Source of the DNA: Candidatus Thorarchaeota archaeon
Lineage (GTDB): Archaea > Asgardarchaeota > Thorarchaeia > Thorarchaeales > Thorarchaeaceae
Direction of reading: 5' to 3'
DNA length: 25,616 nt
Assembly: GCA_048884785.1 (NCBI GenBank)
Contig: JBHLQM010000008.1
Span: 48,447 to 74,062 of the forward strand
Shown: positions 19,224 to 22,025 of the stretch, one piece after another
Position numbering within the stretch: position 1 is the first letter of the stretch
Layout: each line of letters begins with the position of its first letter
Notes under the pieces: model-generated
Told to the model about the DNA's origin: nothing
Database searches by the model: none
The model's input: the letters and a program-made list of their open reading frames with translations, nothing else
Program-made: the position numbers and the translations under genes

Positions 19224-19381
19224 GCAGAAACCTCCTCTTTGCTTCTTGGGCGGTGCGAGCTTCTGTTTTAATCCAATTGGTTTGAAACTTTCTGATTCTA
19301 TCAGAAAAGAGATGACAAATGCTAACTTTGATATTGCCTAATGCACAGGCCGACGATAGTATCTCGATGGTGAGAAGAACG

Positions 19382-21028
19382 ATGAGTAACAGAATAAAAG
19401 CGATAGCCCCTGGAAAGGCGGACCTTTCCACTATGAAGGCTGTCACAGACCAGGCAGATATTACAGATACATATGCTCTCTATCTTGATGACGAGAGTCA
19501 CTCATTTGCTGGACAGACAGAGAAGATTGTGTTCCCTGAAAATGAGAACCAAGTTGCTGCTGTTATTAAAGAGGCATATCAAAAAGGAGAGCCTATCACA
19601 ATTCAGGGCGGACGCACAGGTCTTACCGGTGCAGCTGTACCGATTGGTGGTTTGACTCTTAATTTTGAGAAGATGAATAGACTGTTGTATATGAAGTATA
19701 ACGAGCAGGGCGGAATATATACGATAGCAGCCGAGGCCGGTGCACTCCTTGAAGACCTTGTGAAGGCTGTTACCAATAAGAGCCTTGATTCGATAAAGGG
19801 CAAGGGCACTCCAGACGAACAGACTGCTCTGGGGAAGTTCTTGGCTGAAAAGAAAGACTTCACTTTTCCTGTAGACCCCACCGAAATGAGCGCATGGATT
19901 GGAGGTATAACCGCATGCAATGCATCTGGTGCAAAGTCCTTCAAGTATGGTGCGACCAGAGAATGGGTATTCAGAATCAGAGTTATACTAACGAATGGGG
20001 ATATTCTGGATATTGAGAGAGGAAGATACACTGCTAGGGATGGGAAGTTCGAAATTGAACAGACCAATGGCTCGATAATTGAAATAGAAATTCCCACATA
20101 TACAATGCCAAACACAAAGAATGCTGCAGGACTCTTTGCCAAACCCGACATGGATCTTATTGACCTGTTTATTGGCTCAGAAGGAATTCTTGGAGCAATT
20201 ACTATGGTAGAATTGGGATTGGTTAGCCTTCCTGAGAATATCATGACTGTCATGGCATTCTTCCCTAGTGAAGATGATGCAGTGAACTTTGTTTACGCTA
20301 TTCGTGGGCCAGATACTCCTGTGAAAATGGACTTTCTAGAGTATTTTGATCCAAATGCAATAGAGATGATCAAGCAAAAAGCCGCGTCTTCTGGAATCAA
20401 GGTACCTGCTCTTACCGAGCAGACCAAGGCAATTGTTTGGTTTGAGTTTGAGTATACAGAAGAGGAAATGGAAGAAAAAATCATGGGCCTTGAGGAGGTC
20501 CTGGTGAAAAGCAACAGCTCTTCCGAATCTAGTTGGGCAGGACTTGACCGCTCAGAGCTGCAGAAGATGAAAACAGTGCGACACTTTGTTCCTGAAACTG
20601 TCAATGCGCTGATAGCGCAGAGGAAAGCCGAATATCCCAAGGTTCACAAGATTGGTACAGATATGGCGGTTCCTGATGAACCACTGAGGGACTACATCAG
20701 ATACTATCGCGATGTGCTCGAGGCTCAAGGCATGGAATTTGTCATATTTGGGCATATAGGAAACAATCACCTCCACTGCAATATGCTCCCACGTAATAAC
20801 GAGGAAGTAGACCAAGGAATGGACAACTACATGACCTTCGCAAAGCGTGCTGTCGAGCTGGGTGGAACGGTTGCAGCTGAACATGGGATTGGCAAACTCA
20901 AGCGAGCCTTTCTTGAAGTCATGTATGGAGATAAAGGGATTCAAGAGATGCAGGCTGTGAAGAGAGCACTTGACCCACAATGGCTCCTCAATCGCGGCAA
21001 TATGATCAGTGTTCCAGCAGACAAGTAA
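19382..21028 (+). CDS. FAD-linked oxidoreductase (GlcD/D-lactate dehydrogenase family)
   Basis: QGGRTGLTGAAVP, DPTEMSAWIGG..NASG, FIGSEGILG, FGHIGNNHLH, AEHGIGKLK. Likely start ATG 19382. Confidence 0.92.
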   Translation: MSNRIKAIAPGKADLSTMKAVTDQADITDTYALYLDDESHSFAGQTEKIVFPENENQVAAVIKEAYQKGEPITIQGGRTGLTGAAVPIGGLTLNFEKMNRLLYMKYNEQGGIYTIAAEAGALLEDLVKAVTNKSLDSIKGKGTPDEQTALGKFLAEKKDFTFPVDPTEMSAWIGGITACNASGAKSFKYGATREWVFRIRVILTNGDILDIERGRYTARDGKFEIEQTNGSIIEIEIPTYTMPNTKNAAGLFAKPDMDLIDLFIGSEGILGAITMVELGLVSLPENIMTVMAFFPSEDDAVNFVYAIRGPDTPVKMDFLEYFDPNAIEMIKQKAASSGIKVPALTEQTKAIVWFEFEYTEEEMEEKIMGLEEVLVKSNSSSESSWAGLDRSELQKMKTVRHFVPETVNALIAQRKAEYPKVHKIGTDMAVPDEPLRDYIRYYRDVLEAQGMEFVIFGHIGNNHLHCNMLPRNNEEVDQGMDNYMTFAKRAVELGGTVAAEHGIGKLKRAFLEVMYGDKGIQEMQAVKRALDPQWLLNRGNMISVPADK

Positions 21029-21374: not shown

Positions 21375-21487
21375 TTCTAGACAGCCTCGCAGTAGATTGG
21401 AACACTTGAAGATGTGCTTTAATGATTACTATGTAGTCAAATGTGTCTGGCATTATTATAGCACTTGAAATGTCATTTTTTCGTGAG

Positions 21488-21504
21488 CAAAAACCCTTTA
21501 GTAC
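21488..21504 (+). promoter_or_regulatory. BRE/TATA-like promoter
   Basis: CAAAAACCC-TTTAGTAC, centred about 25 nt upstream of the 5' end of the 21524 stem. Confidence 0.5.
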
Positions 21505-21523
21505 AACTATGCTCTATACTTTT

Positions 21524-21610
21524 GTTGGTGGGCTGCTTGCAGGGACAGTCATGGTACTAACCTAACAATGTACCACACCCATAAATGACGCCCAGCTGGC
21601 TCCCACCAGC
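21524..21610 (+). ncRNA. Candidate ~87-nt structured RNA with paired 5'/3' ends
   Basis: Nested helices GTTGGTGGG/CCCACCAGC, GCT/AGC, GGG/CCC, GTCAT/ATGAC and GGTAC/GTACC. G-U pairs favour the + strand. Confidence 0.55.
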
Positions 21611-21692
21611 TGCTGCTTCTCTGTTGCACCTAGCTGTGAATTAATAATCGAGAAGTTATGCTCAATGATGAGAACGTTTGGATGTCTGACAG

Positions 21693-22025
21693 ATGGATAG
21701 TGAACATCAGAACAGCACAGGACCTGTCATTGACAAGGAAAAAAAGGTAGTTTCGAGAATGATTCGCCTCTATTGTCAGAAGAAGCATTCAACATCTTCA
21801 GGAACTCTCTGTGAGGAGTGTCAAGCATTAGAAGAATACTCTCATCATCGCCTTGACCAATGTAGATATGGAGAAGAAAAGACCACCTGTCGAAAATGTC
21901 CAACTCATTGCTATAAGCCTGAGATGAGAGAGAAGATACGTTCGGTTATGCGATTCTCTGGACCTCGCCTAGCACTTCGTGCACCTATGGATTGGGTTCG
22001 TCACCAGATTCATGACAGAGATTAG
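21693..22025 (+). CDS. YgbA-like (nitrous oxide-stimulated promoter family) Cys-rich protein
   Basis: EKKVV..MIRLYC..KH, LCEECQAL..Y...RLDQC, CRKCPTHCYKP, VMRFSGPR. Confidence 0.9.
   Translation: MDSEHQNSTGPVIDKEKKVVSRMIRLYCQKKHSTSSGTLCEECQALEEYSHHRLDQCRYGEEKTTCRKCPTHCYKPEMREKIRSVMRFSGPRLALRAPMDWVRHQIHDRD

Follow-up and report, generated by a model that had tools for sequence, protein, structure and literature searches.

A stand-alone small RNA gene with a nearly invariant unpaired bulge, predicted in one family of Thorarchaeia-type Asgard archaea

Results and discussion

This analysis of the window, i.e. the whole stretch of 25,616 nucleotides of Thorarchaeota DNA under study, confirmed by sequence comparison that a hairpin located between two protein-coding genes does represent a gene whose product is a folded RNA of about 85 nt. 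The original prediction, which had put its size at about 87 nt and described it as a novel structured non-coding RNA with its own promoter, was borne out: the element is present as a single copy, its helices covary in 57 genomes, its promoter is conserved and no Rfam family matches it. The RNA constitutes a new, clearly delimited family, and small RNAs that stand alone and are restricted to one lineage are a known kind of object. It most likely acts in trans through a signature element that is exposed in a bulge. The best explanation, which we put forward tentatively, is that of a stand-alone, single-copy small RNA (sRNA) gene of about 85 nt whose product would engage in antisense pairing via this bulge. 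Antisense pairing is slightly preferred over protein docking at the same element, and the balance falls to a cis-acting leader, a known class that escaped the models and a non-functional hairpin.

Fold, stability and covariation

The MFE fold of positions 21524-21610 (+) is a rod of nested helices with a free energy of -36.9 kcal/mol. Dinucleotide shuffles of the same segment gave -24.4 +/- 3.3 kcal/mol, which places the hairpin at z = -3.83, and none of the 200 shuffles folded as stably; an unremarkable folding energy would have counted against the original prediction. The reverse complement exhibits an ordinary stability (z = -0.81), and stability on one strand only is a signal of the RNA type, not expected of a DNA palindrome. 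In the window, the fold comprises a 9-bp closing helix, three short helices split by single-base bulges and a 6-bp upper helix, and it leaves an apical loop of 12 nt, UAACCUAACAAU, and a 3'-side bulge of 10 nt, CACCCAUAAA. The nested helices, the loop and the bulge that had been described beforehand were all reproduced by this fold. No ORF explains the region, as had also been remarked: the sole overlap is a 40-aa GTG frame (21443-21565) that crosses the promoter. A small-ORF reading was dropped, as the indels among homologues measure 1-2 nt and the substitutions are compensatory.

The covariation that the proposed helices called for is extensive. In the alignment of 57 homologues, both-sided compensatory changes are found in 19 of the 23 base pairs, and 93% of the pair cells hold standard pairs, counts that lean towards the model's own structure, to which this alignment was fitted. 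Sliding the 3' partners by 1-3 columns lowers pairing to 35-58%, and on all five measures the observed values exceed every one of 500 column shuffles (0/500 reach them). The same four helices emerged independently when RNAalifold was run on ten sequences aligned with MAFFT. G-U pairs are abundant and are compatible with the + strand only. We regard the secondary structure of the RNA family as proven by this comparative evidence.

With regard to the architecture shared by the family, P1 joins the 5' and 3' ends with 6 bp and is followed by a small internal loop, P2 and P3, a one-sided 3' bulge and the P4 hairpin. The 5' strand of P1 (GGUGGG, 21527-21532, +) pairs with CCCACC at 21602-21607, and all 6 of its pairs exhibit compensatory changes in the 57-sequence alignment, with 97% of cells paired; in several genomes, for example, GGUGGG/CCCACC is replaced by GGUGAG/CUCACC. 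In the window's genus P1 extends to 21524-32/21602-10. The 9-bp closing helix of the original prediction therefore holds for this genus, whereas only the inner 6 bp are found family-wide, the outer 3 bp being genus-specific. P2 (5' strand GCU-U-GC-A-GGG, 21535-21544, +, pairing with 21591-21600) shows both-sided changes in 8 of 9 pairs, with 90% of its cells paired in the same alignment. All 4 pairs of P3 (5' strand GUCA, 21548-21551, +, pairing with UGAC at 21586-21589) covary, for instance from GUCA/UGAC to AUCA/UGAU. The largest genus has P2 and P3 merged into an uninterrupted helix. Fold and covariation place the 3' strands of P3, P2 and P1 (UGAC, G, CCC-A-GC-U-GGC, U, CCCACC) at 21586-21607 (+).

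The P4 hairpin (UGGUAC/GUACCA, 21552-21575, +) carries the apical loop at 21558-21569, and the base of its helix, GGUA/UACC, is nearly invariant in the family. The loop is rich in pyrimidines and A and poor in G, being of the CUACCA, CUAUCA or CUUCCA type. Two genomes of one genus have only 4 nt left of it, and two from the window's genus carry an extension of ~30 nt, a longer hairpin, in its stead; judging from these homologues, the apical loop is dispensable. Insertions of ~20-30 nt with a hairpin of their own were observed in the position of the apical loop at L051 and L059, both from the window's genus, and at L044, from another genus.

Promoter and transcript ends

Conserved upstream sequence shows that the RNA has a promoter of its own, of the predicted BRE/TATA type, and both transcript ends could be predicted. 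The putative promoter (21488-21503, +) consists of an A-rich BRE-like run (21489-21493) and the TATA-like octamer CTTTAGTA (21496-21503), and the block [G/A]AAAC[C/G]CTTTAGTA is kept upstream of nearly all 57 homologues. In 37 of the 49 homologues that could be scored, the first T of TTTAG lies 29-30 nt ahead of the first P1 base, so the BRE/TATA-like element noticed earlier is both conserved and at a spacing compatible with the proposed start. The tRNA genes of the same genome exhibit an A-run and boxes of the TTTA/TTAA type at similar distances.

As the archaeal TATA box is centred near -26/-27, the transcription start is predicted at P1 or just before it, at 21524-21528 (+), either on G21527, the base with which conserved pairing begins, or as far as 3 nt ahead of it. 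This prediction draws on the TATA spacing and on the sequence conservation among homologues, which starts at GGUGGG. At the other end, a pyrimidine-rich 3' tail (21608-21620, +) is the probable termination zone, in which the 3' end would lie. The consensus after P1 reads n-C-U-U; P1 is immediately succeeded by a T4 run (CACCCC-TTTT) in the largest genus, and TTT is present near the end in 34 of the 57 homologues.

With only 3 occurrences in the host genome, the extended promoter motif marks no regulon; a shared promoter regulon was rejected on account of this rarity. A promoter-like AAAAACCCTTTAGAC was observed in a genus without the RNA, at L318 (G021:C217:3350-4252, minus strand), where it lies at ~335-350 of the oriented locus, downstream of the HTH gene described below. 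No recognisable RNA follows it at this locus, and it may be a relic of a lost RNA copy.

Distribution and copy number

The element is single copy in its own 3.6-Mb assembly, and BLASTN retrieved nine relatives within the same family. Two covariance models were built, the first from ten sequences and the second from all 57. With the first, exactly one match per genome was obtained in 57 of the 86 genomes of the host's family, representing 11 of its 16 genera, so that the homologs expected of a genuine RNA gene are at hand. A MITE or other dispersed repeat, which the original prediction had named as an alternative, is ruled out by the one copy in the host genome and the one copy per relative genome.

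Outside the family, the second model had no match in the one sister-family genome and none in 125 sampled genomes (0/125) from 26 other families of the Asgard phylum. The 29 negative genomes of the family were searched again with laxer filters at E <= 1 and likewise gave no match. Five genera lack the RNA in every genome searched, and some of these assemblies are 96-99% complete. Stray TACCACACCCA sites, i.e. occurrences of the signature 11-mer, in negative genomes were found to be unrelated and to lie mostly in coding sequence. A contig scan with a loose pattern, whose matches were mostly random bacterial ones, yielded six archaeal loci, the only ones that the covariance model confirmed; a metagenome pattern scan added 11 further contigs, all of them ordinary long DNA contigs and none transcript-like. 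On the genomes covered here, the RNA is specific to one family of Asgard archaea of the Thorarchaeia type.

The conserved bulge and its proposed action

The signature UACCACACCC and its A-rich tail occupy 21571-21585 (+). The first 4-5 nt close P4, and the remainder forms the unpaired 3' bulge (21576-21585), which measures 9-13 nt among homologues as against 1 nt on the 5' side. No other block of the family consensus is as well conserved as this signature: ACCACACC occurs without a mismatch in 51 of 57 homologues, and the stretch (U)ACCACACC(C), then AA, is almost invariant. The composition of the bulge is 47% A, 47% C and 2% G (94% A+C). The partners of the first signature bases, GGU, are equally fixed and exhibit no covariation, the junction pairs being G-C in 54 and 55 of 56 rows. 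As the alignment shows, the helices are free to vary if pairing is kept, and the G-free 3' bulge at the P3/P4 junction is nearly invariant. In the absence of G, the bulge would not pair with the other unpaired segments, which are G-poor, and should therefore stay accessible. An invariant unpaired stretch beside covarying helices is the usual signature of a seed or a docking site; action in trans is most likely.

The rod may be regarded as a nuclease-resistant scaffold that displays a C/A-rich single strand to a trans partner. Under the antisense reading, which we favour while giving it somewhat less than an even chance, the bulge might pair with a G/U-rich RNA segment (GGGUGUGG-like, overlapping the GGUG of Shine-Dalgarno-type sequences), and this pairing would lower the translation or stability of the target, as in regulatory sRNAs with a C-rich seed. 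The features by which a base-pairing sRNA can be recognised at the sequence level, namely its own promoter, a terminator and a conserved unpaired seed, are all present. Against antisense pairing, both strands of the P4 base (GGU/ACC) are invariant as well, and paired ends are seen more often in RNAs bound by protein than in sRNAs that act by base pairing.

The target tests still allow a seed of 6-8 nt, but they give no positive support for the antisense model. With the gene's own antisense removed, the exact 11-nt complement of the signature was not found above the reversed-pattern control in 86 genomes; for the 8-mer, the host genome has 56 sites, compared with ~64 estimated from base composition. 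Of the matches at ribosome-binding sites of the host genome, the best is GGAGGUGUGGU, which precedes a NuoN-like gene. It is confined to this genome, as 27 orthologous leaders do not retain it; most of these leaders show an SD-like GGAGGU(G). A 7-nt match in the SRP RNA (GGUGUGG) is confined to the window's genus, and the signature matches 16S, 5S and 23S rRNA no better than chance. The SRP RNA of the host genome (G000:C19:35561-35871) itself scored 91.3 bits, below the Rfam gathering score of 96.5. Only 27 of the 86 family genomes have an SRP RNA above this cut-off, so standard annotation would miss it in most of them.

Protein docking is a credible competitor of antisense pairing, although we consider it, too, to fall short of an even chance. 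In that case it would serve as the nucleic acid component of a small RNP peculiar to this lineage, or as a sponge for a protein. The protein, of a single-strand-binding type such as KH, RRM or cold-shock, would recognise the junction of helix and bulge (GGU/ACC with ACACCC), perhaps also the apical loop with its CCA/UCA, and the RNA would sequester, recruit or stabilise it. The fixed G-C pairs of the junction are better accommodated here, as the invariance covers paired bases that do not covary, and the closed-end rod resembles Y, vault and 4.5S-type RNAs. That the RNA was not found in five genera, some with highly complete genomes, would fit co-loss with a partner, and the searches run revealed no conserved RNA target. 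However, no RNA-binding gene was found as a conserved neighbour, the neighbours being metabolic or regulatory and variable by genus. The sole recurrent one, encoding an HTH protein, does not co-vary with the RNA, and no TROVE gene was found in the host genome.

A more specific proposal, which we consider unlikely, is that the RNA is the core of a new Thorarchaeia-specific RNP, a 'rod RNA' similar to Y, vault or 7SK RNA, with a dedicated protein that reads the ACCACACC junction. If true, it would be an Asgard example of the small stable RNP RNAs that are otherwise typical of eukaryotes.

Genomic context

In the window, the RNA is flanked by a gene for a FAD-linked oxidase (19319-21028) and by a co-directional gene of the YgbA_NO family (21693-22025; Pfam match to YgbA_NO with E = 3.7e-38) that starts 83 nt downstream of the RNA. 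The original prediction had left the choice between a stand-alone RNA and a 5' leader of this YgbA-like gene. Only the window's genus has this gene behind the RNA. In other genera its place is taken by a gene for a glyoxalase or a histidine phosphatase or by a convergent CBS-domain gene, the gene 3' of the RNA being convergent at 14 loci, and the upstream genes include those for an MFS transporter, an HNH protein and an HTH protein. Outside the RNA, a TTGCAC...TTAATA block (21624-21648, +) is kept in those five genomes of the genus in which YgbA comes next, and is probably a separate promoter of the YgbA-like gene. As the neighbours differ by genus and the YgbA-like gene appears to possess a promoter block of its own, the sequence data support a stand-alone gene, the first of the two options, over a leader, the second.

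Control in cis of the gene immediately 3' (YgbA in the window's genus), by a leader or riboswitch-like element, is accordingly very improbable in our estimation. The close co-directional gene in the window, and a co-directional ORF that is also close in the largest genus, would suit such an element. Its C-rich asymmetric bulge also superficially resembles ligand pockets, among them the ACANCCCC bulge of the nadA/NAD+ riboswitch. Nevertheless, a cis-acting element is at odds with a downstream gene that varies in identity and even in orientation, with the conserved TATA-like block that lies after the RNA and with the T-tract directly 3' of P1 in the largest genus. Rfam riboswitch matches are, moreover, absent even at E <= 10.

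The recurrent HTH neighbour is a protein of ~400 aa with matches to AsnC-type HTH and winged-helix domains (L017:219-1421 (+) and orthologues). Its gene directly precedes the RNA in four genera and is located within ~4 kb of it in a fifth. It is present also in genera without the RNA and, by this query, was not found in the genera that hold most RNA copies. Since the HTH gene does not track the RNA, the linkage looks like inherited gene order, not functional pairing. In one genome without the RNA (L320, G016:C24:154214-154613), the HTH gene is directly followed by the YgbA-like gene, and the spacer contains an unrelated hairpin (GGCACACC...GGUGUGUC) at the place that the RNA takes in the window's genus.

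Known RNA classes

At the gathering score, Rfam 15 gave no match in the whole window (0 matches), and at E <= 10 nothing was found over 21524-21610; the cmscan comparison therefore leaves the hairpin without a matching family, in keeping with its presumed novelty. ARAGORN reported no tRNA in the window and no T-loop, the fold being an unbranched rod, and the family consensus contains neither C (RUGAUGA) nor D (CUGA) boxes. The earlier statement that no tRNA T-loop, C/D boxes or riboswitch consensus could be recognised is thus upheld by ARAGORN, by the family consensus and by Rfam at E <= 10. No ACA follows the closing helix in the 3' flanks of the 57 homologues, and no tandem G-A of a K-turn or K-loop was found; a K-turn in the GGGA/UGAC region was rejected in view of the continuous P2-P3 helix of the largest genus.

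The tRNA-Sec, SRP RNA, RNase P RNA, 5S rRNA and 16S rRNA were all located elsewhere in the genome. TROVE (Ro60, PF05731) was not found in the host genome, which is 91% complete, with positive controls in Deinococcus and Bacteroides. RVT_1 (PF00078) was not found in it either, with positive controls in three genomes, and no RT is encoded among the neighbours. The MVP domain PF11978 had no match in the host genome, a search in which the positive control also matched nowhere. Of the likeness to Y and vault RNAs suggested in the original prediction, the architectural part stands, whereas a TROVE gene in the genome and a sequence match are both wanting.

It is similarly improbable that the models overlooked a diverged representative of a known class, such as an H/ACA or C/D guide, a tRNA-like RNA or intron-bearing tRNA, a Y RNA or an RT template RNA. 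A single hairpin of guide-RNA size and a template-like C/A-rich bulge could be read in this way, and we take the bulge ACCACACCCA to match 10 nt of the yeast telomerase template. A bioRxiv preprint (10.64898/2026.10.13.758758) states that Asgard tRNA genes are often heavily interrupted, which counts in the same direction. These points are outweighed by the lack of C/D boxes, the lack of ACA in any genus and the negative ARAGORN result. The pocket is also one-sided, with 1 nt 5' compared with ~10 nt 3', the known RNAs (tRNA-Sec, SRP, RNase P, 5S) were found elsewhere, and TROVE and RVT_1 are absent.

Two observations on annotation were made alongside. In the host genome, ARAGORN found a tRNA-Sec (C35:12547-12637) and several tRNAs interrupted by introns of 8-54 nt, as well as, on G000 contigs C9, C14 and C67, tRNA genes with implausibly long 'introns' of 253-1437 nt. 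The weak C/D-like Rfam matches obtained at E <= 10 are located outside the hairpin. The one to SNORD113 at 21658-21716 (+) (19.3 bits, E = 0.38) contains AUGAUGA and CUGA and extends over the start codon of YgbA; not being conserved in four aligned congeners, it is probably a chance match.

Finally, a non-functional element, be it a chance hairpin, a DNA palindrome or protein-binding site, a repeat or a MITE, has only the prior that intergenic hairpins are common in its favour and is barely conceivable, being refuted by covariation and copy number, with strand-specific stability, compensatory changes that include G-U pairs, and a single copy kept across 11 genera in differing genomic contexts.

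Significance

Very few non-coding RNAs are on record for the Asgard archaea, a group with few members in culture. The invariant single-stranded signature of 8-10 nt can be added to RNA catalogues, and the RNA family can be used to annotate Thorarchaeia genomes and to probe sediment metatranscriptomes. That it was not found in five genera provides a handle on the protein or RNA partner via phylogenetic profiling. A dedicated protein as partner would make the RNA relevant to how small RNPs of the eukaryote type arose; with an mRNA as partner, it would rank among the first conserved riboregulators from the archaea most closely related to eukaryotes.

Comparison with known systems

Three kinds of known RNA invite comparison. 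The single-hairpin H/ACA guides of archaea (~70-90 nt) share with the Thorarchaeia RNA a lower stem, an internal unpaired region and an upper stem. In contrast to these guides, the Thorarchaeia RNA exhibits neither an ACA box nor a K-turn or K-loop, its internal loop is one-sided, and its lower helices are continuous in the largest genus.

C-rich seeds are known from Firmicutes sRNAs of the RsaE/RoxS type, which carry an anti-SD-like CCUCC/UCCC motif. Among archaea, trans-encoded regulatory sRNAs include sRNA162, sRNA154 and sRNA41 of Methanosarcina mazei and the sRNAs of Haloferax, as given in a review (PMC5867862). Like these archaeal and Firmicutes RNAs, the Thorarchaeia RNA is small, has a putative promoter of its own and a U-rich end, is not tied to a fixed neighbourhood and presents a conserved unpaired, G-free and C-rich element beside structured parts. 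It differs from them in that its ends are paired into a rod, whereas trans sRNAs have a free 5' seed and a terminator hairpin. Its motif is ACCACACC, not CCUCC/UCCC, it bears no sequence or model similarity to them, and no complementary target was found.

With regard to Y RNAs, stem-bulge RNAs and vault RNAs, the conserved elements are different, Rfam gives no Y_RNA or vault match, and Ro60/TROVE was not found in the genome. Nevertheless, the Thorarchaeia RNA is similar to them in size (80-110 nt in their case), in the stem that closes its 5' and 3' ends, in its internal unpaired pyrimidine- or C-rich region and in its short U-rich 3' tail.
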